A stretch of 64,000 bases of DNA, from contig JBBQBI010000009.1 in assembly GCA_038363005.1 (NCBI GenBank), positions 2,376 through 66,375 on the forward strand. The letters are read 5' to 3'. This document shows positions 1 through 63,383 of this stretch, piece after piece. Position 1 is the first letter of the stretch. Every line of letters starts with the position of its first letter. Under the pieces are notes generated by a model. It worked only from the letters and a program-made list of their open reading frames with translations. It was not told the DNA's origin and did not search any database. The stretch is from Rhodospirillales bacterium. Lineage in GTDB: Bacteria > Pseudomonadota > Alphaproteobacteria > Kiloniellales > JACOMY01. The position numbers and the translations under genes are program-made.

Positions 1-2409
1 TGGTTCCTCAACCTGCCCTGGGTGGCGCAGTGGCTGACCGAGGCCTTCAAGGACTACAAGCAGGCGCAGAAACCTGGACGACCGCTCAGCCCCGACGACT
101 TCCCCTATGTCTGCGAGCACTGGGCGCGCTACGCCACGCTGATCGACCTGCTGAAGGAGGCCATCAGCGTCCCCGACCTGAAGTTGGCCGACACGCTCTC
201 GGCCGCCACCTTGAAGCCGATCGACGTCGACCTGGTGCTGGATGTCGGCAACAGCCGCACCTGCGGTCTGCTGTTCGAATCGGTCGGCGAGAGCTTCTCG
301 ATGCGCAACGCCTATGTGCTGGCGCTACGCGACCTGTCGCGCCCCTGGCTGCTGACCGAGGACCCCTTCGAGAGCCGGGTGGAGTTCGCCAAGCCGGCTT
401 TCGGGCGCGAGCAGATCCGCACTGGCCGGCCCGACCTGTTCCACTGGCCCAGCCTGGTGCGCGTCGGCCCCGAGGCGGCACGCCTGGCCAGCGAGGTCCA
501 GGGCACCGAGGGCGCCACCGGACTGTCGAGCCCGAAGCGCTACCTGTGGGACACCCGGCGCGCGCGCCAACCTTGGCGCCTCAACACCGCCGAGGCGCCC
601 TATTGGGAGCGTGACGGCGAGATCGGCGGCGCGGTGACCACGCTGGTGACCGAGGAGGGCGAGGTGATCGCCACCCTGCCGGTCAAGCCCGGCGAGTTGC
701 CGCCGGTGTCCGCCGTGCTGCCGCTGTTCAGCCGCTCAGCGCTCTACGGCTTCATGCTGGCCGAGATCCTGCTGCAGGCGCTAATGATGATCAATTCGCC
801 GGGCACCCGCGCGCGGCGACAGAACGCCGACGTGCCGCGCCGCCTGAAGCGGCTGATCCTGACCCTGCCGCCAGCCACGCCGCTGGCCGAGCAGCGCATC
901 CTCAAGGCCCGGGTCGAGGGCGCCATCGCGCTGATCTGGGAGCTGCTGGGCTGGGACACCTCTGACTCCGCGCTGCACGAGCGCCCGCAGATCAAGGTCG
1001 ACTGGGACGAGGCCAGCTGCACCCAGATGGTCTACCTCTATACCGAGATCACCCAGAAGCTGCAGACCACGGCGCGCGACTTCTTCGAGGTCATGGGCAA
1101 GCCACGGCCGGACAGCGGGGTCGGCCGCAAGGAAGACCCGACGTTGCGGGTGGCGTCCATCGACATCGGCGGCGGCACCACCGACCTGATGATCATCACC
1201 TACGGCCTGGAAGGCGACCGGGCCATGGTGCCGCAGCAGAACTTCCGCGAAGGCTTCCGGGTCGCCGGCGACGACGTGCTGGAGGCAGTGGTCGAGGCGC
1301 ATGTACTGCCGGCCATCGCCCGCGCGCTGCAGGCCGCCGGGCTGGACGACGCCGAGGAGTTCCTGTCGCGCCTCTTCGCCGCCGACCGCGCCGGGCAGTC
1401 GGAGCAAACCCGTCTGGCGCGCGCCGTCTTCGTCGCCCAGGTGCTGGCGCCGGTCGGCCTGGCGATCATCGGCGAGTACGAGGCGCTGGGGCCGAACGGC
1501 GGGCCGCCGGTGACCCGCCGGCTGGGCGACTGCTTCGCCGGCCGCAACCCGCCGACCGCCGAGGCCCGTGCCTACCTGGAGGCCGAGGCGACGCTGCGTG
1601 TCGGCGCGCCCTTCATCCTGGACGACGTCGAGATCGTCATGGTGCCCGAAGCCATCGGCAAGACCGTCGAGTCGGTGATGGAAGCGGCGCTGAGCGACCT
1701 CTGCGAAGTGGTGCACGCCTACGACTGCGACGTGGTGCTGCTGTCCGGCCGCCCCTCGCGCCTGCCGGCGCTGGTGGAGTTCGTCAAGGCGCGCATGCCG
1801 GTGCCGCCGGACCGCGTGGTGCCGATGCACAGCTATCGCGCCGGCGAGTGGTATCCCTTCGGCGACAGCAAGCTGCGCGTCGCCGATCCGAAGACCACCG
1901 CCGCGGTCGGCGCCATGCTCTGCGCCGTGGCGGAGGGCCAGCTCGAGGCCTTCTCGCTGCGCACCGACCGGCTGCGCATGCGCTCCACCGCGCGCTATAT
2001 CGGCGAGATGGAAATCAACGGGCAGATCCGCAAGGAACTCTTCGCCAACATCGACCTGGATCAGCCGGGCCTGCCGGCGAAACCCTGCGAGATCGAACTT
2101 TTCGCGCCGATCTTCCTCGGCTTCCGCCAGCTGCCGATCGCGCGCTGGACGGCGACGCCGCTGTACTACCTGGAGTTCCGCAATCCGGAGGAAGCCAGCC
2201 GCCTGCCCCGCCCGCTGAAGGTCACGCTGGAACGGCGCGACCCCAAGCGCGAGGAGGACCGCGAGGCCAGCCTGGAGGACTTCCGCGTCGTCGAGGTGGT
2301 GGACGCCGAGGGCGGACCGCGACGTAACACGGTGGTGAATCTGCGCCTGCAGACACTGAAGTCGGAGGCCGGCTATTGGCTGGACACCGGCGTGCTGGTG
2401 GTGAGCTAG
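1..2409 (+). CDS. srfB: SrfB-family protein (Hsp70/actin-fold ATPase-like), 5' end cut by the window edge
   Basis: The frame is open from nt 1, with no stop before listed ORF 22..2409. It carries actin/Hsp70-fold phosphate motifs LDVGNSRTCGLL and SIDIGGGTTDLMI and an adenosine-like motif LLSGRPSRLP. Its size and the SrfC-like gene that follows match srfABC operons (family recognition from memory). Confidence 0.7.
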   Translation, partial: WFLNLPWVAQWLTEAFKDYKQAQKPGRPLSPDDFPYVCEHWARYATLIDLLKEAISVPDLKLADTLSAATLKPIDVDLVLDVGNSRTCGLLFESVGESFSMRNAYVLALRDLSRPWLLTEDPFESRVEFAKPAFGREQIRTGRPDLFHWPSLVRVGPEAARLASEVQGTEGATGLSSPKRYLWDTRRARQPWRLNTAEAPYWERDGEIGGAVTTLVTEEGEVIATLPVKPGELPPVSAVLPLFSRSALYGFMLAEILLQALMMINSPGTRARRQNADVPRRLKRLILTLPPATPLAEQRILKARVEGAIALIWELLGWDTSDSALHERPQIKVDWDEASCTQMVYLYTEITQKLQTTARDFFEVMGKPRPDSGVGRKEDPTLRVASIDIGGGTTDLMIITYGLEGDRAMVPQQNFREGFRVAGDDVLEAVVEAHVLPAIARALQAAGLDDAEEFLSRLFAADRAGQSEQTRLARAVFVAQVLAPVGLAIIGEYEALGPNGGPPVTRRLGDCFAGRNPPTAEARAYLEAEATLRVGAPFILDDVEIVMVPEAIGKTVESVMEAALSDLCEVVHAYDCDVVLLSGRPSRLPALVEFVKARMPVPPDRVVPMHSYRAGEWYPFGDSKLRVADPKTTAAVGAMLCAVAEGQLEAFSLRTDRLRMRSTARYIGEMEINGQIRKELFANIDLDQPGLPAKPCEIELFAPIFLGFRQLPIARWTATPLYYLEFRNPEEASRLPRPLKVTLERRDPKREEDREASLEDFRVVEVVDAEGGPRRNTVVNLRLQTLKSEAGYWLDTGVLVVS

Positions 2410-2415
2410 GAAGCG

Positions 2416-5124
2416 ATGATGGACGAGCTGGACAGCAAACTGGGCGGCGAGTGCCGCAAGGCGGCGGAGGCGGCCGGCCAGGCCCTCGGCTGGGTGGCGG
2501 ACAACGCCGAGCGTGTCGGCGCTGAGCGCCCCTCGATCGAGCGCCGCCTGCGCAAGGCGACGGTGACGGCCGGCAAGCTAGCGCTGGCGGCGGAGCGGCC
2601 GATGTGCGTCGGCGTCTTCGGCCCCAGCCAGGCCGGCAAGTCCTACCTGATCTCCGCCCTGGCCCGGCCGAAGGCGACCGAGGGCGGGCAGGAGGATCTG
2701 ATCGCCGAGTTCGACGGCATTCCCGGCGGCCTGTCCTTCGTGCGCCACATCAACCCGCAGGGCGGCGGCGAGGCCACCGGCCTGGTCACCCGCTTCACCA
2801 TCCGCAAGGCACCGACGCCGGCCGGCTTCCCGGTCGCCTTCCGCCTGCTGTCGGAACTCGACGTGGTGAAGATCCTGACCAACACCTACCTGTCGGACTT
2901 CAAGGACGACGAGGAGCGCCCGGCCACGGCCGAGGAGGTGGCGCGCGCCCTGACCGAGGCGCGCAACGCGGCGCAGGCGGCGCCGCTCGACCGTCTGTCG
3001 ATCGACGACTTCTATGACCTGCGCGAATACGCCGACAAGTATTTCCGCGGCCACGAATTCATCAAGGCGCTTGGCCCGACCTACTGGGGCGAGCTGGAGC
3101 GCCTGGGGCCACGCCTGCCGGCCGCCGCGCGGGTCAAGCTGCTGTCCTTCCTGTGGGGCCGCCACGCCTTCTTCACGCAGATCTACACCCGCCTGCAGGC
3201 GGCGCTGGCGCAGCTCGACTTCGCGCCCGAGGCCTTCGCGCCCATCGCCGCGCTGCGCGATGCCAACGCACCAGCGACCGAGGGGCCGCGGCGCGATTCC
3301 ATCATCGACGTCAACACGCTCTATGCGCTGTCCGAGCCGGGCGCCGACACCATCCAGGTGAAGACGCCGGCAGGCCGTGAGGTCGCTATCGCGCGGCCCG
3401 TGGTCACCGCGCTGATCGCCGAGCTGCGCATCCAGATGCAGAAGCAGCCCTGGCCCTTCTTCGAGCACACCGACCTGCTCGATTTTCCCGGCGCGCGGGT
3501 GCGCGAGAACTACACCGTCAAGCAGGTCACCGAGAATCCCGAGCTGGTGCCCAAGTGCTTTCTGCGCGGCAAGGTCGCTTATCTTTTTGAGCGCTACTGC
3601 GCCGAGCTTGAGCTCTCCTCGATGCTGCTCTGCATCGGCCCCTCCAACCAGGAGGTGCGCACCCTGCCGAAGATGATCGAGGACTGGGTAGCGGCGACGC
3701 ACGGCTCGACCCCGGCGGAGCGTGCCAAGCAGGAGACGCTGCTGTTCTTCGTGCTGACCAAGTTCGATACCGAGTTCGACGAGAAGGCCGGCAAGCTGGA
3801 TCCGGCGCTGGCCTTCGACACGCGCCTGCGCCACAGCCTGACCGAGTTCTTCGGCGCCAGCGGCTCCTGGGTCGGCGAGTGGCACCCCGGCGAGCCCTTC
3901 AACAACACCTACTGGCTGCGCAGCCCCAACGCCTATGCCGAGGGCCTGTTCGACTTTTCACCCGACCGCCGCGAGCTGAAGCTGCACGAGCACAAGCAGG
4001 CGCGCCTGGCCGAGATCAAGCCGCTCTACCTCTCCACCACCCTGGTGCAGCAGCACATCGCCGATCCCGAGCGCGCCTGGGACGAGGGGCTACGGCTGAA
4101 CGACGGCGGCGTCACCTGGCTGGCGGAGAACCTGGCCCCGGTGTGCAATCCGACCATCAAGCGCCGCCAGGTCTCGGCCCGGCTGGCCGAACTGGTGGGC
4201 CAGCTGGCGCAGACGCTGAAGCCCTTCCACGTCTCCGGCGACATCGCCGAGGAGCGCGAGAAGCGCCTAGCCCTGGCGCTGGAGAGTCTGGGCGAGCTGG
4301 AGGCGCTGGCCGAACAGGGTCGCTTCGGCACGCTGCTGGGCGCCTTCCAGGTAGAAACCGACCAGCTGGCCGACCTCTATCTCAAGGTCGCCGCCACCGC
4401 CGATGGCGAGCCCGGCCAGCCGGAAGCGGCGGCCAAGCCCAAGGCCAGCGGCCGGCTGCTCGGCCGCATCTCCGGCGTCGCCACCGGCAATGGCGAGGGC
4501 GCCGCGGCGCCGGCCGCCGCCACGCCGCCGGGTGAGCGCCGCGTCGAGCGCTATGCCGCGGCGGTGATGGAGGGCTGGATCGACGAGATGCGGCAGACTG
4601 CCGCCGACGAGGCGCTGCTGCGCCGCCTGCAGGTCGACGGCGGCACGCTGTCCAACCTGGTGACCGAGCTGGCGCAGGCGGCCGAACGGCTGAAGCTGGG
4701 CCAGTCGATCCGCGAACGGCTGCGCCAGACCAAGGGCGTGCCGAAGCAGCCGCGCCATGCCATGTCGAGCGGCGCGCTGGCCGCCGGCGAGGCGATCAAC
4801 CGCTTCGTCGCCAGCCTGGGCTTCGAGCGCGTTGCCCCGGCGCAGCGGCCGAAGACACAGGACGCCGCCGGCCAGGAGCGGCCGATCTTCACCCGCACCG
4901 TGGCCAGCGGCGAGGTGCCGAGCCTGCCGGCCGAACCGCAGCGCTACGACGACCAGATCGCCGTCGACTGGATGGCCGGCTTCCTGAAGCTGGTGGAGGA
5001 GAACGCCGCCACCCTGGAGGGCGCGCAGCTCGACATCGAGCAGAACGCGCGCCTTGGCCGCCTGCTGCAGACCCTGGGCCACGTCGGCCATACCCTCGGC
5101 AGCGCTGCCGGGGCCGCAGGCTGA
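2416..5124 (+). CDS. srfC: SrfC-like putative virulence factor; dynamin-like P-loop GTPase
   Basis: 902-aa ORF starting 7 nt after the srfB stop, with an AGGAAG RBS. G1 is GVFGPSQAGKSYLISAL (nt 2611-2643), G3 is LLDFPGAR and G4 is LTKFD. A long helical C-terminal half follows. Confidence 0.65.
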   Translation: MMDELDSKLGGECRKAAEAAGQALGWVADNAERVGAERPSIERRLRKATVTAGKLALAAERPMCVGVFGPSQAGKSYLISALARPKATEGGQEDLIAEFDGIPGGLSFVRHINPQGGGEATGLVTRFTIRKAPTPAGFPVAFRLLSELDVVKILTNTYLSDFKDDEERPATAEEVARALTEARNAAQAAPLDRLSIDDFYDLREYADKYFRGHEFIKALGPTYWGELERLGPRLPAAARVKLLSFLWGRHAFFTQIYTRLQAALAQLDFAPEAFAPIAALRDANAPATEGPRRDSIIDVNTLYALSEPGADTIQVKTPAGREVAIARPVVTALIAELRIQMQKQPWPFFEHTDLLDFPGARVRENYTVKQVTENPELVPKCFLRGKVAYLFERYCAELELSSMLLCIGPSNQEVRTLPKMIEDWVAATHGSTPAERAKQETLLFFVLTKFDTEFDEKAGKLDPALAFDTRLRHSLTEFFGASGSWVGEWHPGEPFNNTYWLRSPNAYAEGLFDFSPDRRELKLHEHKQARLAEIKPLYLSTTLVQQHIADPERAWDEGLRLNDGGVTWLAENLAPVCNPTIKRRQVSARLAELVGQLAQTLKPFHVSGDIAEEREKRLALALESLGELEALAEQGRFGTLLGAFQVETDQLADLYLKVAATADGEPGQPEAAAKPKASGRLLGRISGVATGNGEGAAAPAAATPPGERRVERYAAAVMEGWIDEMRQTAADEALLRRLQVDGGTLSNLVTELAQAAERLKLGQSIRERLRQTKGVPKQPRHAMSSGALAAGEAINRFVASLGFERVAPAQRPKTQDAAGQERPIFTRTVASGEVPSLPAEPQRYDDQIAVDWMAGFLKLVEENAATLEGAQLDIEQNARLGRLLQTLGHVGHTLGSAAGAAG

Positions 5125-5126
5125 TC

Positions 5127-6206
5127 ATGGCCCTGCGCTTCCTTCTGCAACAGGACACCTCGGTCCCTGGCGGCGGTCACGCGCTGCTGTTCCTGCAAGG
5201 TGCCGGCAAGGTGCCGGGCGACGCCCGCCTGATCATCCGACGGCTGCAGCCCGAGGCCTGGCTGGGCCCGGCCGGCTGGCAGCCGACGCGTGCCGAGCTC
5301 ACCGTCGCGGGGCCGGAGCGCAGCGAAAATTCGCTGTTCCTCAAGCTCGGCCCCGCGGTGGTCGACCGCATCCCGCCCTGGACCAAGGTCGAGGTGACGC
5401 TGCCGTCGCTGCAGGAAAGCCAGGTCATCGTCTGGCCAGCCCTGGAGCAGTCGCCCGGCGGCGGTGGCGGCAGCGGCCAGGTCGCCTTTGGCGGCCGCCG
5501 GCCGCCGCAGCGCAGCGAGCCGAGCATCGTTCCGCCGCCGGCGCCGGAGCCTGAGCCCGCGCCAGAACCGGAGCCCGAACCACCGCCGCCGGCCCCGGCG
5601 CCGGCGCCCTTCCTGACCGCCGACCGGCCGCCGCAGCCGCCACCGCTGCCGAAGCGGCGGCGCCGCGTCTGGCCCTGGGTGCTGCTGCTGGTGCTGCTGG
5701 TCATCGGCGGCCTCGCCGTCTGGCAATGGCAGACCGGGGAGCCCGAGCGGCTGCTCTGCCGATGGGGTGTGCCCGAGATGGGCATCCTGACCTGCCAGCA
5801 GCCGGTGACCGATGCCTGTCCGGCCAGCCTGCCGCTGGATCAGCGCAGCGACTGCTATCTGAAGGCGCTCGACGCCGCCGCGCTCTTCGCGCTGGCCGAG
5901 CAGCTTGGCGTCAGCGGCAAGCCGGGCGAACGTGACCTGGCCTGGACGCTGTTCGCCGCGCTGGATGCCCGCGGCTATGCCACCGCGACCTTCGAGCTCG
6001 GCCTCTGCTACGACCCGCTGCTGCCACAGGGCTGCTCGCTGCAGCCGCGCCTCTCGGCCAACGCGCGCCAGGCGCTGCAGTATTACAGCCGCGCCGATGT
6101 CGCCGGCGCCGCCGAGGCCAAGCCACGCATCGGGGCGCTCTGCGGCTGGCTTAACGGCAAGAACGACTTGGCATCGCAGGCGGCGAAGTTCGAGTTCTGC
6201 AAGTGA
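5127..6206 (+). CDS. hypothetical bitopic membrane protein: cytoplasmic N-domain, Pro-rich linker, one TM, Cys-rich Sel1-like periplasmic domain
   Basis: The ATG lies 2 nt after the srfC stop and GC3 is high. The linker reads PPPAPEPEPAPEPEPEPPPPAPAPAP. KRRRRVWPWVLLLVLLVIGGLAVWQW is an N-in TM segment. The C-terminal part has many Cys and a Sel1-like ATFELGLCYD / ALQYYSRA pattern. Confidence 0.6.
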   Translation: MALRFLLQQDTSVPGGGHALLFLQGAGKVPGDARLIIRRLQPEAWLGPAGWQPTRAELTVAGPERSENSLFLKLGPAVVDRIPPWTKVEVTLPSLQESQVIVWPALEQSPGGGGGSGQVAFGGRRPPQRSEPSIVPPPAPEPEPAPEPEPEPPPPAPAPAPFLTADRPPQPPPLPKRRRRVWPWVLLLVLLVIGGLAVWQWQTGEPERLLCRWGVPEMGILTCQQPVTDACPASLPLDQRSDCYLKALDAAALFALAEQLGVSGKPGERDLAWTLFAALDARGYATATFELGLCYDPLLPQGCSLQPRLSANARQALQYYSRADVAGAAEAKPRIGALCGWLNGKNDLASQAAKFEFCK

Positions 6207-6210
6207 CCTG

Positions 6211-6233
6211 CCCTCTCCCCTCGCGGGAGAGGG
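6211..6233. repeat. REP-type GC-rich hairpin (CCCTCTCCC-N5-GGGAGAGGG)
   Basis: Perfect 9-bp stem, 6211-6219 pairing with 6225-6233, in the 50-nt gap between the orf359 stop and the vWA start. It belongs to the same family as the elements at 10133, 10217, 28917 and 28989. Confidence 0.7.
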
Positions 6234-6256
6234 GGGCCTTAACAGGAGCTGGTGAT

Positions 6257-8155: not shown

Positions 8156-8892
8156 CCGAGGCCGCCGCGCCGCTGCTGCGGGTCGAGCGGCTGGCCAAGC
8201 GGCGTGCCGGCGACGACCGCTCCTTCACGCTGGAGGTGCCGCGCCTGGCACTGGCGCCGGGCGGCGCGCTGGCGCTGGTCGGCCCCTCGGGCTGCGGCAA
8301 GTCCACGCTGATCGACCTGCTGGCATTGGCCCTGGCGCCCGACCGTGCGGCGCTGTTCCACCTGCGGGTCGGTGGCGGCCAACGCTGGCTCGACGTGGCC
8401 CGCGCCTGGAGCGAGCGCAAAGAGGACCTGCTGGGCCGCGCCCGCGCCCTGACGCTGGGCTATGTGCTGCAGACCGGCGGCCTGCTGCCCTTCCTGACGG
8501 CCGGCCGCAACATCGCCCTGCCGGCGGAGATCGCCGGGCGGCACGACGCCGCCTGGATCGCCGACCTGGCCGGGCGCCTGGGCATCGCGGCGCTGCTGGG
8601 CGAAATGCCCAGCCGCCTGTCGGTCGGACAGCGCCAACGCGTCGCCGTGGCGCGCGCCCTGGCGGCGCGCCCGCCGCTGGTGCTGGCCGACGAGCCGACG
8701 GCCACGCACGACCCGGCCAATGCCGAGGTGGTGATGGGCCTGCTGGTGGCGGCGACACGCGATGCCGGCGCCGCGCTGCTGCTGGCGACGCACGACCGCG
8801 CGCTGGTGCAGCGCCTGGGCCTGCCGGTCGCCGGCTTCGCCGTCAGCGAGGCCGGCAGCGCGGTCACCGCGCGCCTGGTGGAGGCGGCATGA
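8152..8892 (+). CDS. ABC transporter ATP-binding protein (MacB/LolD-like)
   Basis: The GTG start overlaps the vWA stop (GTGA). Walker A is GPSGCGKST, the Q-loop is VLQTGGLLP, the signature is LSVGQRQR, Walker B is LVLADEPT, and LLLATHD is the H-loop. Only the last 246 codons of listed ORF 6481..8892 are used. Confidence 0.85.
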   Translation: MTEAAAPLLRVERLAKRRAGDDRSFTLEVPRLALAPGGALALVGPSGCGKSTLIDLLALALAPDRAALFHLRVGGGQRWLDVARAWSERKEDLLGRARALTLGYVLQTGGLLPFLTAGRNIALPAEIAGRHDAAWIADLAGRLGIAALLGEMPSRLSVGQRQRVAVARALAARPPLVLADEPTATHDPANAEVVMGLLVAATRDAGAALLLATHDRALVQRLGLPVAGFAVSEAGSAVTARLVEAA

Positions 8893-10103
8893 AGCGCCGT
8901 CTGATCCTGCGCCTGGCGCTGGCCGAGGCGCGCCACGAGCGGCGCTTCCTGCTGCTCTCCGCCATCGGCCTGGCCGCTGTGCTGGCGCCGCTGCTGGTGC
9001 TACTGGCGCTGAAGGTCGGCGTGGTCGACGTGTTGCTGACCCGCCTGCTGGCCGACCCGGCCAATCGCGAGATCAAGGTGGCGCTGCACGGCGACTATGA
9101 CCGCGCCTTCCTGGACACGCTGGCGCAGCAGCCCGGCGTCGCCTTCCTGGTACCGCAGACCCGCTCGCTGGCCGCCACAGCACTGCTGGCGGCGGTCGAT
9201 GCCAACCCGCAGCAGACCGCCGATGCCGAGCTGATCCCCAGCGGCACCGGCGATCCCCTGCTGCCCGCCGCGCTGACCCTGGCGCCCAGCGACATCGCGC
9301 TCTCCGCCGACCTGGCCGAGCGGCTGACGCGGCAGCCCGGCGACAGCCTGCGACTGATCGTGACGCGGCAGAAGAACGGACGCGAGGAGCGTGTCTTCCT
9401 CGACCTCACGGTGGCGGCGGTGGTGCCGCGCGGCCGCCTGGGTGGGCGCAACGCGCTGGTGCCGGCGCCGCTGCTGGAGGCGCTGGAGGACTATCGCGAC
9501 GACATCGCGGTCAAGGCCTACGGCTGGACCGGTGCGAGCGAGCCACCGGTGCCGGACTCGCGGCACTACAGCCGCTTCCGCCTCTATGCCACCAGCCTGG
9601 AAGCCGTGGCGCCGCTGGCCGACCAGCTCGCCCGCCTGGGGGTGGAGACGGTGACCCGCGCCAGCGACATCGACAGCGTGACGCAGCTGAACCGCAGCCT
9701 GTCGCGCATCTTCGCCATCATCGCTGGGCTGGGCGGCCTGGGCTACGTCGCGGCGCTGGCGGTCAGCCTGCTGACCGACGTGGAACGCAAGCGCCGCACC
9801 CTGGCGCTGCTGCGCCTGCTGGGCCTGCCGCGCCGGGCGCTGGCCGCCCTGCCGCTGCTGCAGGCCGGATTGATCGCGCTGGCCGGCTTCCTGCTCGCCC
9901 TCGGGCTCTACTACCTCGCCGCCGAAGCGGTGAATCGCTCGTTCGCGCAAGGGCTTATCCCCGGCGAGCGGCTGGCCGGCCTGCCTGCGGGGCATATCCT
10001 GGCCGCCTTGGCCGTAACACTCCTGGTGGCTTTCGGTGCCGCGGCCTGGGCCGCGCGCCGGGCCTCACGCGTGGAACCGGCGGAGGGCTTGCGTGATGTC
10101 TAG
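8889..10103 (+). CDS. FtsX-family ABC permease (4 TM, large periplasmic loop)
   Basis: The ATG overlaps the ATPase stop (ATGA). There is an N-terminal TM, a loop of about 230 aa, then three C-terminal TMs ending in the typical ARRASRVEPAEGLR tail. It occupies the last 404 codons of listed ORF 7938..10103. Confidence 0.75.
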   Translation: MKRRLILRLALAEARHERRFLLLSAIGLAAVLAPLLVLLALKVGVVDVLLTRLLADPANREIKVALHGDYDRAFLDTLAQQPGVAFLVPQTRSLAATALLAAVDANPQQTADAELIPSGTGDPLLPAALTLAPSDIALSADLAERLTRQPGDSLRLIVTRQKNGREERVFLDLTVAAVVPRGRLGGRNALVPAPLLEALEDYRDDIAVKAYGWTGASEPPVPDSRHYSRFRLYATSLEAVAPLADQLARLGVETVTRASDIDSVTQLNRSLSRIFAIIAGLGGLGYVAALAVSLLTDVERKRRTLALLRLLGLPRRALAALPLLQAGLIALAGFLLALGLYYLAAEAVNRSFAQGLIPGERLAGLPAGHILAALAVTLLVAFGAAAWAARRASRVEPAEGLRDV

Positions 10104-11880
10104 TCTCCGCTTTGGGCGGACAGGATTGGAAGCCCCTCTCCCGCGCACAGCGCGGGGGAGGGGTTGGGGAGGGGGTGGTTGCCAGGTGGGCTCGCCTGTT
10201 GAGACCCCCTCCCCAGCCCTCCCCCGCTTCGCAGGAGAGGGAGTTCTGGCGGCGCTGTTGCTCGTTCTCTGTACGCTCTTCACACCCACCCAGGCCGCCG
10301 AGCCTTGGCCCGAGACCCTGGTCAATCCGCAGCCGGCCACCGGCGACCTGCTGGTGCCGCTGCCCTGCGGCGGCGCCATGGCTTTCCGCTGGGTGGCGAC
10401 GCCGGCGGGCACGTCCTGGCTCGACGACCTGCAGGTCTTCATGGGTCGCGCCGCCGACGAGGCCTCCTACAACGAGTTCGCCCATCTCTCGCACCTGGCC
10501 GGCGGCCTGTCGCTGGACGGCAGCGCCGCGCTGCGCGGCTACTGGCTGGGCAAGTACGAGGTGAACGAGGCGCAGTGGCAGGCGGTGATGGCAGGCGATT
10601 GCGCCACTCCGCCCGCCAGCGCGCGCCGCGCCGCCGGCGGGCATTCCTGGTTCGAGGCCGTGGCCTTCGCCGAGCGCCTGACCGAATGGCTGCTGCAGAA
10701 CCAGCCCGGCGCCCTGCCGAAGGCCGGCGAGACCACTGCCTACCTGCGCCTGCCGACCGAAGAGGAGTGGGAATACGCCACCCGCGGCGGCAGCGCGGTG
10801 ACCGAGGCCGAGTTCCGCGCCCCGCTGTTCCCCATGCAGGGGCCGCTGTCGGGCTATGCCTGGACGCAGGAGAGCCAAGCCTGCCAGGGCAAGCCGCAGG
10901 TCATCGGCCTGCTGAAGCCCAACCCCTTGGGCCTTTACGACCTGCTGGGCAATGTCGAGGAGCTGATGCTGGAGCCCTATCGCGGCACGCTGGCCGGCCG
11001 GCCGCATGGCCAGGTCGGCGGCCTGGTGGCGCGCGGCGGCTCCTGCCTGTTGAACGGCAGCCAGCTGCGCTCGGCACTGCGTACCGAGTATCCGCCCTTC
11101 GATGTGCACAGTGGCCAGGCGCTTCGCCTGCCGCTGCTGGGTTTCCGCCTGACCATCGCCGCGCCGCTGGCGATCGACGCCGCGCGCATCGCCGCGCTGA
11201 AGGGCGACTGGAGCGACCTGGTGGCCGCCCGCCAGGGTGACGCCGGCGCCGATCCCCTGGCGGTGGTCGACCAGGTGGCGGCCGAGCTGACCGACCTGCA
11301 GGCGCGCGACCGGCTGAGCGCGGCGCTGCTGGCGCTGCGCAGCCGCGAGGGCGCGCGCAAGGAGGCCGAGGCCCGCGCCCTGCAGTCGCTGCTGCTGGCC
11401 GGCACCGCCATGGCCAAGAGCTACTACGACCTAGCGAAGAACGACCAGGCGCTGGCCGGCTTCGCCGCCGACTACCAGAAGCAGCTGGACAAGAACCCCG
11501 ACCCGGCCTCGGCCGGGCACAAGCAGTACAAGGCGTTGCTGGAGAGCCTGCAGGCCAAGCGGGCGGAACTGGCTGGGCGCCTGGCGCTGGCCGGCGCCGC
11601 CTATCTGGAGGTGCTGCTGCAGACCGCCGAGGGGGCCGATCCGGCGGCGCGCGCCGACCAGCTGGCGCTGCTCAAGGACCGCATCGCCCGCCTGGGGCAG
11701 CTGGCCGCCGGCAGCGACGCCGCCGCCCGCGCGCAGCTGCTGGACCTCGCCGCCTGCGTGGTGGCGCAGGCCGACGACCTGGCGGCGGGCCGAACCGAGG
11801 ATTCCAGCGTTTACCTGGGGGAGTACGTCGCGCTGGCGGCTACGCCGGGCGGCCAGACCGCCAGCGGCTGCCGCCTGTAA
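10096..11880 (+). CDS. FGE-sulfatase (SUMF1/PvdO-type) domain protein with a helical C-terminal extension; start uncertain
   Basis: Motifs are GYWLGKYEVNEAQW, HSWFEAVAFAERL, RLPTEEEWEYATRGG, NPLGLYDLLGNVEELM and RGGSC. The signal-like LAALLLVLCTLFTPTQA/AEP follows the REP-encoded stretch. ATG 10096 overlaps the permease stop, but the true start could be CTG/TTG at about 10246-10258. Confidence 0.75.
   Translation: MSSLRFGRTGLEAPLPRTARGRGWGGGGCQVGSPVETPSPALPRFAGEGVLAALLLVLCTLFTPTQAAEPWPETLVNPQPATGDLLVPLPCGGAMAFRWVATPAGTSWLDDLQVFMGRAADEASYNEFAHLSHLAGGLSLDGSAALRGYWLGKYEVNEAQWQAVMAGDCATPPASARRAAGGHSWFEAVAFAERLTEWLLQNQPGALPKAGETTAYLRLPTEEEWEYATRGGSAVTEAEFRAPLFPMQGPLSGYAWTQESQACQGKPQVIGLLKPNPLGLYDLLGNVEELMLEPYRGTLAGRPHGQVGGLVARGGSCLLNGSQLRSALRTEYPPFDVHSGQALRLPLLGFRLTIAAPLAIDAARIAALKGDWSDLVAARQGDAGADPLAVVDQVAAELTDLQARDRLSAALLALRSREGARKEAEARALQSLLLAGTAMAKSYYDLAKNDQALAGFAADYQKQLDKNPDPASAGHKQYKALLESLQAKRAELAGRLALAGAAYLEVLLQTAEGADPAARADQLALLKDRIARLGQLAAGSDAAARAQLLDLAACVVAQADDLAAGRTEDSSVYLGEYVALAATPGGQTASGCRL
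10133..10241. repeat. two REP-type hairpins (10133-10163 and a degenerate copy at 10217-10241)
   Basis: CCCCTCTCCCGCGC-aca-GCGCGGGGGAGGGG forms a 14-bp stem with one mismatch. CCCTCCCCCGC-ttc-GCAGGAGAGGG is the degenerate copy. Both lie inside the 5' part of the FGE-domain reading frame. Confidence 0.65.
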
Positions 11881-11917
11881 TCGAGATGCTAGACTGTTCG
11901 AAGTGGAGAGCTTGCCC

Positions 11918-12709
11918 ATGACCGCCCGCATCGCCCCGCGACCGCTGCCGCCACCCGCCCGCCCGCTGCGGCGGGCCGCGACACTGCTGCTTGCCGCCAC
12001 GATGGCGCTGGCCGGCTGCGCCTCGCAGCGCACCGCAGGCCCCAGCTTCGATGCCAGCGCCCCTGGCCTCACCGCCGACCAGCGCACGGTGCGCGAGGTG
12101 GCGCAGAAGGTCACGCCGCCGGAGGAGCAGGGCGGCAACAACTGGTTCGGTGACAACGCCATCGTCCTTCTGGCGGCCGCCGGCTGCGTCGCCGGCGCGG
12201 TGGTCGGCGGTTCGGCGCGCGGCTGCCTGACCGGCGCGGTGATCGGTGGCCTGGCCGGCGCGGTGGCCCGCATCACCGTGTTCGACAAGCGCGACAGCTA
12301 CGCCAACGACAAGGATTTCGTGAACGCGGTGTCCGACGAGATGGACCGCGTGCTGGCCGAGAACGAGCAGCTGGTGCCGGCGGCCGAGCGCCTGGCCGAC
12401 GCGCACGAGCTGACCCTGTCGCAGCTGAAGGAGGCCTATGGCCGCGGCAGCATCGGCAAGGCGGAGTACCGCAAGCAGGTGGAGCCGCTGCTGGTCGACG
12501 AGCAGGCTTTGGCCTACATCGCTGAATCCAACAAGCAGCTGGCCAGCGACCTGGACAAGGCGCTGACCGGGGTCAACGTCGCCACCTCGCAGCAACAGCG
12601 GCTGGAGGACCAGGAAGGCGACTTCCTGGCCGATTCCGGCCGCATCCAATATGCCCAGGAACGCCTGTCCGGTGCCCTCGCCCAGGTGCCGAAAGAGGTC
12701 CTGAAGTAG
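11918..12709 (+). CDS. lipoprotein with a glycine-zipper segment and a coiled-coil C-terminal domain
   Basis: A GGAGAG RBS precedes ATG 11918 and the lipobox is MALAGC. The glycine zipper reads AAGCVAGAVVGGSARGCLTGAVIGGLAGAV. It is a paralogue of 12812..13564. Confidence 0.65.
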   Translation: MTARIAPRPLPPPARPLRRAATLLLAATMALAGCASQRTAGPSFDASAPGLTADQRTVREVAQKVTPPEEQGGNNWFGDNAIVLLAAAGCVAGAVVGGSARGCLTGAVIGGLAGAVARITVFDKRDSYANDKDFVNAVSDEMDRVLAENEQLVPAAERLADAHELTLSQLKEAYGRGSIGKAEYRKQVEPLLVDEQALAYIAESNKQLASDLDKALTGVNVATSQQQRLEDQEGDFLADSGRIQYAQERLSGALAQVPKEVLK

Positions 12710-12811
12710 CCGCCGTCACTCTGGGCAAAAGCATCCACAGGCTTTGATGGCGGGGCTATGCCACGAAGTCGCCACGTAACACGCAGAAGGTTTCCTGCCG
12801 GAGTTCACCCG

Positions 12812-13564
12812 ATGCTGAAGCAAATGATGGTCCTCGTCGCCGCCGCCAGTCTGGCCCTGTCAGGCTGCGCCAGCGGTTCGTCGCGCTACAGCAGCAGCAA
12901 CAACAGCCACCTGACGCCGGACCAGAAGGTGCTGCGCGCCAACGCCGCGCGCGTCGATCCGGAGAACGCCGGCAGCAACACGGTCGGCGAGGCCGTGGTG
13001 CTGGGCGCCGTCATCCTGGGCGCGGTCGGCTGCGGCATCGCGCTGCTGGCCGGCGGTAACGGCGGCGACTGCGCGGCGGCCGGCGTCGGCGGCGCGGCGG
13101 TGGGCGCGGCCGGCGGCTACATCGCCGGCAAGATGGTGCAGAAGGAACAGAAGGACTATGCCAGCCGCGAGGCCTATCTGGCGGACGTGATCGACGCCGC
13201 CGACACCGAGATCGCCGAGAACCGCCGCGCCGCCGATGCCGCCCAGCGCGTCACCGCGCAGCACGAGCGCCGCATCGACCAGCTGAATGCGCAGTACGCG
13301 CAGAAGAAGATCAGCAAGAAGGACTATCGCGACGAGGTCGCCGAGATGAGCATCGACCGCGACGCTATCGCCCTGGCAGTGGAAACCAACCAGCAGAAGA
13401 TCGCCGAGATGGAGGACCTGATCGACCAGGGCGGCCGCAGCAGCGACCTGCGCGCGCTGCGCGATCGCCGCGACGCGCTGGACGAGGAGAACCGGGCATT
13501 GGAGCGCCAGCTGGAAGAGATGGTGGCGCTGCTGTCCTCGACCCCCTCGGCGATGCAGTCATGA
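12812..13564 (+). CDS. lipoprotein with a glycine-zipper segment and a coiled-coil C-terminal domain (paralogue)
   Basis: The lipobox is LALSGC. The glycine zipper reads GAVGCGIALLAGGNGGDCAAAGVGGAAVGAAGGYIAG. The C-terminal helical region aligns by eye with the preceding protein (DSYANDKDF.. versus KDYASREAY..). Confidence 0.65.
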   Translation: MLKQMMVLVAAASLALSGCASGSSRYSSSNNSHLTPDQKVLRANAARVDPENAGSNTVGEAVVLGAVILGAVGCGIALLAGGNGGDCAAAGVGGAAVGAAGGYIAGKMVQKEQKDYASREAYLADVIDAADTEIAENRRAADAAQRVTAQHERRIDQLNAQYAQKKISKKDYRDEVAEMSIDRDAIALAVETNQQKIAEMEDLIDQGGRSSDLRALRDRRDALDEENRALERQLEEMVALLSSTPSAMQS

Positions 13565-14073
13565 GGCTGCCGCTCGCCATCCTGGCGCTGCTCGCGCTGC
13601 CGGCGCTGGCCGGCTGTGGCGGCTGCAGCGGCGACCCCGCCAGGGACGGCTTCGTCTGCGGCGTCAACTCGCTGAGCAAGGGCACCTACGACAAGCGCCA
13701 GGAGGCGCTGGAATCGGAGGCCGGGACCAAGCAGGCACAGGCGCAGCAGAGCGAACAGGAACGCCTGGCGGCCGAGGCGCGCGAGAAGCAGAGCGCCGCC
13801 GATGCGCGCGCGCTGGAGCAGAAGCTGGCCGACCTGGACCGCGCCATCGCCAATCGCCAGGCCGAGCTGCAGCAGGCCAAGGCCAAGGCCGGCGGCGACC
13901 GCGTCGCCGAGCTGAGGGCCCTCGAGCAGAAACTGGCCGAACTGCAGCAGCGCTATGCCAAGCTGCAGGCCGATGCCGCGGCCTCCAAATCAACCACGGC
14001 GGAGGTTGCCGACCTGGAGGCGCGCAACGCCGAGCTGCGCCGCCTGCTCGACCAGATGATCAAGAGCCTGTAG
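13561..14073 (+). CDS. small coiled-coil lipoprotein
   Basis: It shares an ATGA overlap with the upstream gene. The lipobox is PALAGC. The rest is a Q/A/E/K-rich heptad-like sequence. Confidence 0.6.
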   Translation: MRLPLAILALLALPALAGCGGCSGDPARDGFVCGVNSLSKGTYDKRQEALESEAGTKQAQAQQSEQERLAAEAREKQSAADARALEQKLADLDRAIANRQAELQQAKAKAGGDRVAELRALEQKLAELQQRYAKLQADAAASKSTTAEVADLEARNAELRRLLDQMIKSL

Positions 14074-14077
14074 CAGC

Positions 14078-15163
14078 ATGGCCGCGCCGGGGGAGCCGAC
14101 ACCAGACGAAGAACGCCGTGGCGGCCCGCGCGCCGTGGCGATCGCTGCCTGGCTGGCGCTTACCCTGATTCTCGGCGCCCTGGCGGTGGTCACACTGCAC
14201 GGCTGCGGTATCCGGCTGTTCGGCAACACGCTGCTGGACTTCTGCCCGGAGGAACCGGAGCAGGCGCTAGGCCCGCCGCCGGCCCTGCTGGCCGAGCGCG
14301 AGCGGGCCGACCGGCTGGACGAGCGGCTGCAGAACCTGAAGCTCGAGGTCGCCGCCATCGACTACTGCCCGACGCCGCCGGAGGTGCAGGTGGCGGAAAA
14401 GCCACCCGAAAAACCGCCGGAGAAGCCACCCGAGAAGCCGCCCGAAAAGCCCCCTGAGAAGCCGCCGGAGCAGGCCTGCAAGGACGTGCCGCCGGAGGAT
14501 CGCAAGGTCGACCTCTACCTGCTGCTCGACGCCTCGGGCTCCTTCGAGGAGGACCTGCCGTCGATCCGCAAGACCCTGCAGGACCTGATCACCCAGGCGG
14601 CGCAGGGCAAGATCAAGGGCAAGATCCGCCTCGGCCTCGGCAGCTTCATCGACAAGCCGCTGCCGGCCTATCCGCAGCTCTACACCTACAAGCACCACCA
14701 GAGCCTGACCGAGGACTTCGGCGCGGTGCTGAAGGCGTTGCGTGGCATCAAGATCTACGAGAACTACGACGAGCCGGAAGCGCAGCTCGAGGCCATGCTG
14801 GAGGCCGCCGGGCGCGCCGGGCAGATCGGCTATGACAACGAGGCCGAGCGCCTGCTGGTGGTGATCACCGATGCCGACTATCACCGCGCCGGCGACTACC
14901 CGGCGCCGGCCGAGGACGGCAAGGCCGACGGCAACGCGTTGAACGAGGACTACCCCTCGGTCGCCCAGGTGAAGCGCGCGCTGGAGAAGGCTGACCTGAC
15001 GCCGCTGTTCCTGGTAACGGCGGACGCCGCCGGCTACTACCGCAACCTGGTCAAGCAGCTCGGCCGCGGCAACGTCGTGACGATCACCTCGAACTCCAGC
15101 AACCTGCTGGCCGGCCTCGACCAGGGCGTCAAGCAGGTCTGCGGCGAAGGCATCTCGCAGTAA
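14078..15163 (+). CDS. membrane-anchored integrin-beta-I-like (vWA/MIDAS) domain protein with an (EKPP)6 stalk
   Basis: It has an N-in TM anchor, a conserved GCGIRLFGNTLLDFCPEE box, a short coiled coil and an (EKPP)6 repeat. The ectodomain carries DLYLLLDASGSFEEDL (MIDAS DASGS, nt 14528-14542), RLGLGSFIDKPL, YTYKHHQSLTE, DEPEAQLEAMLEA, RLLVVITDADYHRAGDY, DYPSVAQV..LFLVT and SNSSNLL. Confidence 0.8.
   Translation: MAAPGEPTPDEERRGGPRAVAIAAWLALTLILGALAVVTLHGCGIRLFGNTLLDFCPEEPEQALGPPPALLAERERADRLDERLQNLKLEVAAIDYCPTPPEVQVAEKPPEKPPEKPPEKPPEKPPEKPPEQACKDVPPEDRKVDLYLLLDASGSFEEDLPSIRKTLQDLITQAAQGKIKGKIRLGLGSFIDKPLPAYPQLYTYKHHQSLTEDFGAVLKALRGIKIYENYDEPEAQLEAMLEAAGRAGQIGYDNEAERLLVVITDADYHRAGDYPAPAEDGKADGNALNEDYPSVAQVKRALEKADLTPLFLVTADAAGYYRNLVKQLGRGNVVTITSNSSNLLAGLDQGVKQVCGEGISQ
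14396..14467 (+). repeat. six tandem 12-nt coding repeats encoding (EKPP)6
   Basis: The units are gaaaagccaccc, gaaaaaccgccg, gagaagccaccc, gagaagccgccc, gaaaagccccct and gagaagccgccg. The peptide is identical in all six units while the DNA is diversified synonymously. Confidence 0.9.
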
Positions 15164-16344
15164 TGCGCCGCATCACCCCAGTGCTGCTGTGGCTCACGCT
15201 CGTCGCGCTGCTGGTCGGCGGCAGCCTGCTGGTGCTGGAGGGCTGCGGCATCCGGCTGTTCGGCGGCACGCTGCTGAACTTCTGTCCGGAGGAGGCGGAG
15301 GCCCCCAAGGGCGCGCCACCGGACCTGGCGATCGAGGAAGATCGCAACGATCGCCTGCAGGACGAACTGCACCAGCTGCGCCTGCAGCTGGCCGCGGTCG
15401 ACGACTGTCCGCTCCCGCCGATCCCGCTGCCACCGGAGCCGGTACCGCCGCCCACACCGGCACCTGCACCTGCACCTGCACCTGCACCTGCACCTGCACC
15501 TGCACCTGCACCCGCCCCGGCGCCGACTCCCGCGCCGACACCCGCGCCAGCTCCGGCTCCGGCTCCGGCCCCCGCGCCTGCTCCAGCACCCACCCCGGCG
15601 CCCACTCCCGCGCCCACGCCCGCGCCGACCCCGGCGCCGCAGACCAGCGAGCAGGCCTGCACTGAGCTGCCGCCGAACGAGCGGCCGATCGACCTCTACC
15701 TGCTGGTCGACACCTCGGCGTCCTTCGCCGACGACATGTCGTCGATCCGCGCCACCATCCAGGACCTGATCGCCCGCCAGGCGACCGGCCGCATCAAGGG
15801 CAAGGTGCGTATCGGCCTGGGCACCTTCCAGGACAAGCCGAACGCCCAGGCGCCCAGCAACTACACCTACAAGCACCACACCAACCTGACCGAGGCCTTT
15901 GCCGAGGTGCTGAAGTCGCTGCGCAGCACCGCCACCGATCCGAACTACGACGTCCCGGAAGCGCAGCTCGAGGCCATGCTGGAGGCCGCCGGCCGTGCCG
16001 GGCAGATCGGCTTCAAGCAGGGCGCCGCGCGCTTCCTCGTGGTGGTGACCGACGCCGCCTACCACCAGGCCGGCGACTATCCGGGCCCGGCCGAGGATGG
16101 CCGGCCCGACGGCAACCCGACCAACGAGGATTACCCCTCAGTGGCGCAGGTGCGCGCCATCCTGCAGGCCAATGACATCGTGCCGCTGTTCCTGGTGGCT
16201 GGCGGCGAGGAAGCGACCTATCGCAGCCTGGTCAAGCAGCTCGGGCGCGGCAGCGTCGCCCGGCTGGGGGCCTCCAGCGAGAACCTGCTGCAGGCGCTGG
16301 ACAGCGCGGTCAAGACGGTCTGCGGCGAAGGCATCGTGCAGTAG
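15163..16344 (+). CDS. membrane-anchored integrin-beta-I-like (vWA/MIDAS) domain protein with a (PA/PT)n stalk; tandem paralogue
   Basis: The ATG shares one nt with the upstream TAA (TAATG). It has the same architecture, with GCGIRLFGGTLLNFCPEE, DLYLLVDTSASFADDM (DTSAS, nt 15709-15723), RIGLGTFQDKP, YTYKHHTNLTE, DVPEAQLEAMLEA, RFLVVVTDAAYHQAGDY, DYPSVAQV..LFLV and a VCGEGIVQ end. Confidence 0.8.
   Translation: MRRITPVLLWLTLVALLVGGSLLVLEGCGIRLFGGTLLNFCPEEAEAPKGAPPDLAIEEDRNDRLQDELHQLRLQLAAVDDCPLPPIPLPPEPVPPPTPAPAPAPAPAPAPAPAPAPAPAPTPAPTPAPAPAPAPAPAPAPAPTPAPTPAPTPAPTPAPQTSEQACTELPPNERPIDLYLLVDTSASFADDMSSIRATIQDLIARQATGRIKGKVRIGLGTFQDKPNAQAPSNYTYKHHTNLTEAFAEVLKSLRSTATDPNYDVPEAQLEAMLEAAGRAGQIGFKQGAARFLVVVTDAAYHQAGDYPGPAEDGRPDGNPTNEDYPSVAQVRAILQANDIVPLFLVAGGEEATYRSLVKQLGRGSVARLGASSENLLQALDSAVKTVCGEGIVQ
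15461..15508 (+). repeat. perfect hexanucleotide tract (CACCTG)x8 inside the Pro-Ala/Pro-Thr stalk (about 15418-15650)
   Basis: Eight uninterrupted CACCTG units were read directly. They sit within a stretch of about 230 nt encoding APAPAP...TPAPTPAP. Confidence 0.9.
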
Positions 16345-16345
16345 C

Positions 16346-17926: not shown

Positions 17927-18038
17927 ACGCCGCCCCTCCACCGGCACCTTTCTCCGCCTCGACCCGCTTCATGGCAAGGGCTTGCGAGCGGCTGCGCCGG
18001 CCGGCATTAAGAACAGGTCGCGCAGCACCGGAGCCGGC

Positions 18039-54519: not shown

Positions 54520-54595
54520 GGGTTGTCCCTTTGCCCCTGAGAGGACTGCGTTAAATTACGCCTGTACTCTGGCGCAACGTATTGAAGTCTGTTTC

Positions 54596-55461: not shown

Positions 55462-55474
55462 GACCACCAGGCCG

Positions 55475-60300: not shown

Positions 60301-60302
60301 GC

Positions 60303-60998: not shown

Positions 60999-61007
60999 GA
61001 CGTCCCC

Positions 61008-63379: not shown

Positions 63380-63383
63380 GGTC

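Follow-up and report, generated by a model that had tools for sequence, protein, structure and literature searches.

The first 16,344 nucleotides of a 64-kb stretch of Rhodospirillales bacterium DNA (contig JBBQBI010000009.1; the whole 64-kb stretch is called the window below) carry a variant of a known but mechanistically unsolved system, the extended srf cluster, in which srfA, srfB and srfC stand in line with genes for a periplasmic module. The products fall into three layers. The periplasmic and outer-membrane layer consists of lipoproteins, a non-catalytic protein of the formylglycine-generating enzyme (FGE) fold, an ABC pair and a secreted vWA protein, a parts list like that of TagQRST plus the vWA domain of PpkA. 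Bitopic inner-membrane adaptors (SrfA, o359, IntB1 and IntB2) form the second layer and cytoplasmic NTPases the third, namely SrfB, with ASKHA-type motifs, and the dynamin-like SrfC. This partition into cytoplasm, membrane and periplasm had been put forward in an earlier reading of the same DNA (the original prediction), and it is backed by a hydropathy scan and by three lipoboxes, LAGC, LSGC and LAGC. A trans-envelope apparatus coupled to nucleoside triphosphates is a reasonable description of such a set, and the chances are about even that the whole is a lineage-specific version of the extended cluster acting as an envelope signal- or mechanotransduction device that drives SrfB and SrfC. New in the variant are the integrin-beta heads of IntB1 and IntB2, a headless SrfA, a duplicated lipoprotein and an upstream protease.

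The original prediction had regarded the combination as undescribed, which did not hold. A 10-gene neighbourhood of srfABC with tagQ, ppkA, tagR, tagS and tagT was described by Campbell et al. in 2013 for host-associated Deltaproteobacteria and tied to the threonine phosphorylation pathway of the T6SS (type VI secretion system) (PMC3608642). According to a preprint of September 2026, srfABC of H. parainfluenzae and X. stockiae is flanked by a conserved cassette that encodes vWA proteins, an enzyme of the SUMF1 family and an ABC transporter of Lol-like type (10.64898/2026.09.18.752743). Because these two sources already place srfABC with the cassette, the core combination is known. The present cluster shares with the extended srf cluster both the gene families and the order SrfA-SrfB-SrfC-x-vWA-ABC-permease-FGE-lipoprotein(s), but departs from it in four respects: its SrfA is without a periplasmic head and has 301 aa against about 450-520 aa, two stalk-only proteins bearing Integrin_beta heads stand in place of the terminal paralogue of SrfA N-domain, transmembrane (TM) helix and vWA domain, there are two copies of the LpB lipoprotein, and a trypsin-like protease gene precedes srfA.

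Conservation of the unit was investigated in a synteny scan of one genome per species, anchored on the secreted vWA protein of 650 aa (vWA650). At least 585 relatives of vWA650 occur in species-representative genomes, and 80 loci from alpha-, beta- and gammaproteobacteria were fetched and compared by tblastn synteny and all-against-all ORF clustering (ORF, open reading frame). The canonical order is SrfA (often in two copies), SrfB, SrfC, a protein at the o359 position, vWA, ABC, FtsX, FGE, LpB, LpC and often another SrfA paralogue. SrfB-SrfC-x-vWA-ABC-FtsX-FGE is colinear in about 60 of the 80 loci, LpB holds a fixed position in 58 and LpC directly follows LpB in 51. Among the hosts sampled are Pseudomonas putida, P. 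entomophila, P. cichorii, P. mandelii, Methylococcus, Magnetospirillum and Azospirillum as well as Haemophilus parainfluenzae, Aeromonas and Chromatium. The unit is thus co-conserved in three proteobacterial classes and its adjacency is not a peculiarity of one strain; colinear conservation in dozens of genomes excludes chance. vWA650 also matches 114 Klebsiella plasmid records, and the RefSeq annotation of a Klebsiella plasmid gives the same gene order.

Extended srf clusters of this kind are carried on large IncF/IncHI1B Klebsiella plasmids. In the K. pneumoniae plasmid pMB2930_1 (NZ_CP103732.1:154564-180432, locus L082) the whole cluster is flanked by insertion sequence elements, and a glycine-zipper lipoprotein gene lies upstream of srfA and not downstream.

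Within positions 1-16344 (about 71% G+C) twelve tightly packed ORFs lie on the plus strand, not the thirteen genes counted before. The junctions 2409/2416, 5124/5127, GTGA at 8152, ATGA at 8889, ATGA at 13561, 14073/14078 and TAATG at 15163 are all present as earlier listed, and there is one more GTGA at 6203, in a gene for which the public gene call puts the start at ATG 6257. The twelve are predicted, from this packing, to be the last genes of an operon of at least fourteen, in the order protease, srfA, srfB, srfC, o359, vWA, ABC, FtsX, FGE, Lp1, Lp2, Lp3, IntB1 and IntB2, with its 3' end at 16344. The left part is found on a public contig, L083, which shows 0 mismatches to window positions 1-5480. 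As had been expected, srfA lies beyond the left edge (L083:811-1716), directly upstream of srfB; its 301-aa product matches NCBIfam SrfA_fam over the N-domain (E 5e-24), with a score under the full-length cut-off because the C-terminal head of SrfA is missing. The trypsin-like protease gene is seen on the same contig directly upstream of srfA, two genes upstream of srfB. In L002, a relative of 87% identity, the trypsin-like protease carries a TM helix at its N-terminus and also a coiled coil. The claim that the operon encodes no enzyme effector stands for the window but not for the operon with this gene included.

The srfB gene (L083:1788-4784, 998 aa) starts 588 nt left of the window, which holds its 3' 802 codons at 1..2409 (PF07520, E 1e-256). 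It is followed on the same strand after a 6-nt gap by srfC at 2416..5124 (902 aa; PF10139, Virul_Fac, E 1e-246), for which the public gene call starts one codon downstream of the window ORF. Profile searches confirmed these two family calls together with those of ABC_tran, FtsX, FGE-sulfatase and Integrin_beta. The ASKHA-type motifs DVGNSRT, DIGGGTTD and SGRPSR of SrfB are invariant in 16 orthologues, and the hydropathy scan found in it only internal hydrophobic stretches, taken as buried core. SrfC has the invariant motifs GPSQAGKS (G1), DLLDFPG (G3) and TKFD (G4). The earlier call of SrfC as dynamin-like gained support at the level of the fold: in an AlphaFold2 (AF2) model (predicted local distance difference test score, pLDDT, 80.5; predicted template-modelling score, pTM, 0.71) the 31 best Foldseek matches in the PDB were all dynamin-superfamily structures, with probabilities up to 1.0, led by SynDLP (E 4.7e-9) and BDLP (E 7e-6) and then mitofusin, Fzo1, Drp1 and MxA. 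These matches have low template-modelling scores (0.2-0.25), owing to helical domains of differing length and pose. A profile search of PDB sequences gave no match for SrfC, to a solved dynamin or to any other entry. By its modelled structure SrfC is a dynamin-like protein, and the fold match appears to be new here; a literature search returned papers naming SrfC with dynamin, none of them about this protein. Compared with the bacterial dynamin-like proteins (BDLP, SynDLP, DynA, LeoABC and Campylobacter DLP1/2), SrfC shares the G1, G3 and G4 motifs and has its best structural matches in SynDLP and BDLP, but is partnered with SrfB and SrfA and not with a second dynamin-like protein, and the hydropathy scan predicts no hydrophobic segment, TM helix or paddle in it.

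An alternative that bears on these proteins is that SrfA, SrfB and SrfC form a tripartite toxin for eukaryotic cells, possibly carried in vesicles, which the Lol-like ABC pair and the FGE, vWA and lipoproteins would process or export. The three proteins of X. stockiae co-immunoprecipitate as a complex, and made in E. coli they were cytotoxic and insecticidal (PMC6950479); vesicle-mediated export through the flanking Lol-like/vWA/SUMF1 cassette has been proposed in the preprint (10.64898/2026.09.18.752743), and the cluster occurs on Klebsiella plasmids from clinical isolates. One source labels the SrfC family member P0262 'type III effector HopL1', which speaks for the same idea, although the label may be an annotation trail that propagates an untested effector name onto a cytoplasmic dynamin-like GTPase, and by the preprint's own account the type III secretion system does not translocate SrfABC (10.64898/2026.09.18.752743). 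SrfB and SrfC are without signal peptides, and their NTPase motifs or fold are those of mechanochemical enzymes working in the cytoplasm; the FGE domain is without catalytic cysteines, and the cluster is frequent among purple sulfur bacteria, free-living methanotrophs and metagenome-assembled genomes from sea and soil. The periplasmic module is moreover also paired with a Ser/Thr kinase instead of SrfABC, which fits signalling and not export. On this evidence a toxin is considered unlikely.

The periplasmic module begins with vWA650 at 6203..8155 (plus strand), which has a signal peptide and a probable start at ATG 6257. Its match to Pfam VWA is weak (E 8e-5), but its metal ion-dependent adhesion site (MIDAS) motif DxTxS is invariant in 46 homologues. 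Names given by sources to homologues are 'PpkA' and 'PpkA-related'. In the AF2 model (pLDDT 85.9) a vWA domain lies between an N-domain rich in beta structure and a C-domain of helices; the top Foldseek matches are integrin beta I domains, SpaC (an adhesin) and CMG2. The ABC ATPase at 8152..8892 (PF00005, E 7e-22) is of LolD/FtsE/MacB type, with DevA, LolD and FtsE as best NCBIfam models and with Walker A, LSVGQ, the D-E pair of Walker B and the H-loop intact. Its permease at 8889..10103 belongs to the FtsX/MacB type, also called type VII (FtsX E 1.6e-11; MacB_PCD E 5.5e-4, weak), with TM helices at residues 21-39, 274-292, 318-336 and 370-388 and a large periplasmic domain between the first two; the LolCE match (E 8e-6) falls far below its cut-off. 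The type VII ABC systems MacB, LolCDE and FtsEX do mechanical work in the periplasm. The present pair resembles them in the FtsX domain, the four TM helices, the periplasmic domain between TM1 and TM2 and the separate LolD/FtsE-like ATPase, but its scores are far below the LolCE, FtsX and MacB equivalog cut-offs and no membrane fusion protein, TolC, EnvC or LolA partner is encoded; its likely partners are the vWA and FGE proteins. In NCBIfam the cassette proteins drew no Tag- or Srf-specific name, and their similarities to ABC, Lol and GldK models were generic.

The FGE-fold protein (10096..11880; PF03781, E 1.2e-23) is predicted to be periplasmic, with a signal peptide that ends near residue 68 and a long helical C-terminal region. 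Its domain had been called cysteine-less; it does lack the catalytic cysteine pair after RGGS (RGGSCLLNGSQL) but is not literally free of cysteine. The pair is absent in all 19 of the 19 family members with an RGGS motif, where the catalytic positions are taken to be those of human FGE. The nearest solved relatives, TvpA, PorK/GldK and pFGE, are also non-catalytic. Hairpins of the repetitive extragenic palindromic (REP) type had been said to interrupt the gene run, and a single compound one was confirmed, a G-rich palindromic double hairpin at 10133-10225, not assigned to a strand and built of the inverted repeats I8 and I23 (CCCCTCTCCC...GGGGAGGGG...). The plural did not stand: no further copy was found in the 64-kb window, and with one copy in 64 kb its REP nature is putative. 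The hairpin lies between the stop codon of the permease and the signal peptide of the FGE protein, and it is translated in the longest FGE ORF. The 10103/10096 overlap noted earlier exists in that ORF, but with the hairpin inside it both the start at 10096 and the overlap are uncertain. The FGE gene may have had its original start codon displaced by the insertion of this palindromic element.

Three lipoproteins follow. Lp1 (11903..12709, lipobox LAGC) and Lp2 (12758..13564, LSGC; the LpB family) are paralogues of 31% identity (E 4e-20), each with a glycine-zipper hairpin and a coiled coil, and Lp3 (13561..14073, LAGC; the LpC family) has a coiled coil. As glycine-zipper lipoproteins, the description given before, they have the three lipoboxes, but the Gly-zipper Pfam matches are below threshold (E about 0.005). 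The Klebsiella orthologue of Lp2 is annotated as a glycine zipper protein and matches Gly-zipper and Rick_17kDa_Anti (E 6e-5) somewhat better than the window proteins do, yet also below the cut-offs. Lp2 (12758-13564) also matches positions 431-578 of the PADLOC model LeoBC (E 1.4e-7) across its glycine-zipper hairpin and coiled coil; the match could be compositional or could reflect a membrane element like the paddle of dynamins.

These parts have their closest known counterpart in the TagQRST-PpkA pathway of the P. aeruginosa H1-T6SS. There the extracellular vWA domain of PpkA is a sensor and TagR acts on the PpkA C-domain (PMC3224232), and TagQRST senses damage to the outer membrane or envelope (PMC7817224); TagR, TagS and TagT are COG1262, COG4591 and COG1136 (PMC13584744). 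The FGE-family protein TagR corresponds to the protein described here by PF03781 and signal peptide, the present one being non-catalytic; TagT and TagS correspond to the ABC ATPase and the LolE/FtsX-type permease; and the vWA ectodomain of PpkA corresponds to vWA650. TagQ, a lipoprotein located in the outer membrane, is of the glycine-zipper/17-kDa-antigen type, to be set beside the three lipoboxes and sub-threshold Gly-zipper matches found here. The two systems differ in that the vWA domain is here a separate secreted protein and not a kinase ectodomain, and in that the output is SrfA, SrfB and SrfC.

The link between this module and the cytoplasm can be followed in o359, the bitopic adaptor encoded at 5127..6206. 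Its small cytoplasmic N-domain spans residues about 1-125; a Pro-rich linker then leads to the TM helix (181-199), beyond which lies a Sel1-like C-domain in the periplasm. The N-domain shares 36% identity (E 2e-14) with the same-position protein of locus L006 and is conserved among Srf loci. In eight Chromatiaceae and other gammaproteobacterial loci without SrfBC (L060:8289-16315 of Chromatium weissei, L022, L036, L042, L054, L057, L058 and L078), a Hanks Ser/Thr kinase directly precedes vWA-ABC-FtsX-FGE-LpB(-LpC); no conserved gene was found further upstream of the kinase in these loci. The kinase (Pkinase, E 5e-38) looks active by its HRDLSPDN, DFG and APE motifs, and continues into a TM helix and a Sel1-like periplasmic domain. 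This domain is homologous to the o359 C-domain (E 8e-6) and, in 19 Srf loci, to the C-terminal part of the protein at the same position (E 1e-15 to 1e-6). That the periplasmic module follows a Hanks kinase instead of SrfABC in Chromatiaceae is a new observation. Since the same module stands behind such a kinase there, it plugs into alternative cytoplasmic outputs, and the kinase-type unit looks like a T6SS-independent relative of the PpkA/TagQRST pathway. The module is fused or adjacent to three kinds of cytoplasmic partner in all, for which reason it is read as an envelope signal-input device.

During the clustering the gene after srfC had appeared as 'FGE#1'. This was discarded as a single-linkage artefact: Pfam finds no FGE domain in its product, and the true link is the shared Sel1-like C-domain.

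The last two genes of the operon encode IntB1 (14078..15163; PF00362, E 2e-33) and IntB2 (15163..16344; PF00362, E 4e-31), which are 55% identical. Both have an N-terminal TM anchor, a SrfA-type stalk with cysteines and coiled coil, a linker, (PEKP)x6 in IntB1 and PA-rich in IntB2, and an integrin-beta I-like head. The earlier integrin-beta assignment proved strong. The PF00362 scores are 116.6 and 108.9 bits against a cut-off of 24.8, and all 60 of the 60 phmmer matches of IntB1 in the PDB are integrin beta or beta-like chains, with beta7 as the best (E 6e-21) and with DASGSFEEDL, GLGSFIDKP, NYDEPEAQ, TDADYH and DYPSV.QV as motifs of the alignment. The heads retain the MIDAS DxSxS, the acidic pair of the adjacent site (ADMIDAS) and the N-x-D-x-P-E residues of the synergistic metal-binding site (SyMBS), which are conserved in bacterial relatives, and the specificity-determining loop is largely deleted, seen as gaps against beta7. 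Judged by these alignments, the heads are genuine integrin beta I-like domains. Cyanobacterial integrin-beta-like proteins were previously known. The metazoan integrin betaA domain, with its known cyanobacterial and Dictyostelium Sib relatives, shares with the heads the three metal sites and the GFGSFVDK and DYPS motifs; unlike integrin beta, IntB1 and IntB2 are without hybrid, PSI, EGF and tail domains, without a C-terminal TM helix and without an NPxY cytoplasmic tail; a TM helix at the N-terminus anchors them in the inner membrane of the bacterium, with the heads facing the periplasm. The Integrin_beta domain is rare: among 1.84 billion representatives about 522 clusters reached E <= 1e-10, and many of these lie in multidomain proteins of very large size.

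IntB1 and IntB2 cluster with the SrfA family through a shared juxtamembrane stalk, in which the TM helix is followed by GCG(I/V)R..G..FCP, PP.L..ER.R..L..L..L, a further C and a Pro-rich linker, with three conserved cysteines; they are without the cytoplasmic N-domain of SrfA. The SrfA family is modular: its cytoplasmic N-domain is followed by a TM helix and a linker, and the periplasmic head varies, being lipocalin-like (canonical), an ordinary vWA domain or DUF2135-like. In a published model of SrfA the N-domain is kinase-like and a TM helix connects it to a lipocalin-like domain in the periplasm (10.64898/2026.09.18.752743). SrfA of the present lineage has the cytoplasmic domain, the TM helix and the cysteine/coiled-coil stalk but no head. 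vWA-headed SrfA paralogues occupy the IntB position in P. putida (L074:16684-18147) and, in two copies, in H. parainfluenzae. The integrin-like pair is not a core part of the operon; most clusters have ordinary vWA heads on SrfA paralogues at that place. At least five other lineages also have Integrin_beta heads in this terminal position, at 38-91% identity, as seen in L002, L014, L084 (a TARA marine scaffold), L085/L086 (GCA_964619055.1) and a contig with P0128, P0006 and P0166. A further SrfA-family head, with the motif 'L.WN...DLDLHV.CP.G..I......CGG.LD.D.N' and a weak DUF2135 match, was seen at L014:1491-2819, L008:361-2472 and L012:17772-18758.

The variability of the heads bears on another alternative, an NTPase-plus-vWA system for anti-phage or inter-bacterial conflict, in which variable heads would detect invader molecules and the NTPases set the threshold for an abortive or membrane-directed response. 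The heads on the SrfA stalk are strikingly variable, the proposed repertoire comprising vWA, integrin-like, lipocalin-like, DUF2135-like and trypsin-like domains, and the vocabulary of vWA, FGE/FGS domain, trypsin-like peptidase, GTPase and Hsp70-like ATPase is that of a survey of conflict systems (PMC7159879). The plasmid location and patchy distribution across classes agree with such a role, and PADLOC lists bacterial dynamins as defence genes, to which the weak LeoBC match of Lp2 may be added. The survey, to which the original prediction had appealed, does not mention Srf (PMC7159879), and no PADLOC match was obtained for SrfB, SrfC, IntB or the vWA and FGE proteins. Both the vWA and the FGE domain are here periplasmic and not cytoplasmic, and no nuclease, pore-forming or NADase effector was found in the domain scans. 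A conflict system is therefore held to be improbable.

The linkers of IntB1 and IntB2 are unequal, (PEKP)x6 of about 25 aa at 14380-14470 against about 80 aa rich in PA/PT at 15410-15650, and the two heads would therefore be placed at different heights above the inner membrane. A third alternative draws, among other points, on this possible difference in reach. In inside-out adhesion or tethering, hydrolysis by SrfB and SrfC together with the FtsX-type ABC pair would switch the MIDAS heads to high affinity as in integrin activation, and the heads would tie the inner membrane to lipoproteins of the outer membrane, to peptidoglycan or to a polymer in the periplasm. It would account for the retained MIDAS, ADMIDAS and SyMBS residues, which underlie affinity switching in integrins; periplasmic work is what type VII ABC systems generally do, and the lipoproteins of the operon could be the ligands. 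The cell surface is, however, out of reach for heads anchored in the inner membrane, the heads in most clusters are of ordinary vWA, lipocalin-like or other types, and the Pfam scan found no alpha-subunit-like FG-GAP or propeller partner in the operon. The kinase-type sister units in turn argue for signalling from outside in. Tethering is accordingly regarded as very unlikely.

In the favoured reading, that of an envelope signal- or mechanotransduction device, the periplasmic module would sense a perturbation of the envelope or a ligand, and ATP-driven mechanotransmission of the FtsX type would set or reset its state. The signal would cross the membrane via o359 and SrfA, with the IntB heads joining SrfA through the shared stalk; a hetero-oligomeric stalk linking the headless SrfA to both heads would be the simplest account of their common architecture. 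SrfB and SrfC would then be recruited or activated for local remodelling of the inner membrane, in repair or vesiculation. SrfA, SrfB, SrfC and o359 would thus be one output of the module, for which dynamin-type remodelling seems most plausible, and the direction of signalling might instead be inside-out.

Several points weigh against this reading. Published work calls SrfABC a toxin (PMC6950479). The joint stalk, the direction of signalling and the steps from parts list to mechanism, among them the functional coupling of the cassette to SrfABC, are inference. The link to Tag/PpkA is one of composition, COG family, names given by the sources and literature annotation, and not of direct alignment, and no Hanks-type kinase, Fha, PppA or T6SS gene was found among the scanned ORFs of the 64-kb window. 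For SrfB the Hsp70/actin fold claimed earlier is a putative one, with the ASKHA-type (actin/Hsp70) motifs in its favour: a profile search of PDB sequences gave no match, and an hhalign comparison with an approximate sequence of the DnaK nucleotide-binding domain aligned the phosphate-2 block alone with 31% probability. Also no promoter-like or terminator-like sites were found in 16000-18200, the sole stretch scanned for them.

A bolder version would join two ideas, the Srf cluster as a prokaryotic analogue of integrin-cytoskeleton mechanotransduction and its periplasmic module as a portable, universal sensor of envelope integrity with three outputs. The IntB heads may then act through a disulfide-linked coiled-coil stalk and SrfA on an actin/Hsp70-like ATPase and a dynamin-like GTPase, and the three outputs may be PpkA, the kinase through which the T6SS is fired, Hanks kinases that stand alone, and the membrane-remodelling NTPases of SrfABC. 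Taken jointly, these two ideas are thought to be rather unlikely.

Immediately beyond the operon a convergent gene of 533 aa lies on the minus strand at 16346-17947. It is clearly coding (G+C at third codon positions 0.89), has no Pfam match, and has a counterpart of 73% identity at the same place in L002, while it is absent beside the other Srf clusters. The remainder of the window holds regulators, transporters and metabolic enzymes and a Tad/Flp pilus cluster on the minus strand at 53251-63881, with a TadG-like protein, a TadA-type T2SSE ATPase, the secretin RcpA and RcpC/CpaB. A dCache-PAS hybrid histidine kinase (19096-21675) and a LuxR regulator of MalT-like type (22057-24798) are encoded upstream of the pilus cluster. 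Scans of the window for Rfam families and tRNA genes gave no hits.

For 25 years srfABC has been labelled a 'virulence factor' without a mechanism, in Salmonella, on Klebsiella plasmids, in Haemophilus and Pseudomonas and in many environmental bacteria. The dynamin-like fold of SrfC, the TagQRST/PpkA-like parts and the coupling of the module to a Ser/Thr kinase make the system testable now, with the resulting hypotheses that SrfC would form foci after damage to the outer membrane and that the cassette would be required for these foci. The IntB heads with their three metal sites are a rare bacterial case of a domain central to animal cell adhesion, and may offer a simple system for metal-dependent switching and for the evolutionary origin of the integrin beta I domain.

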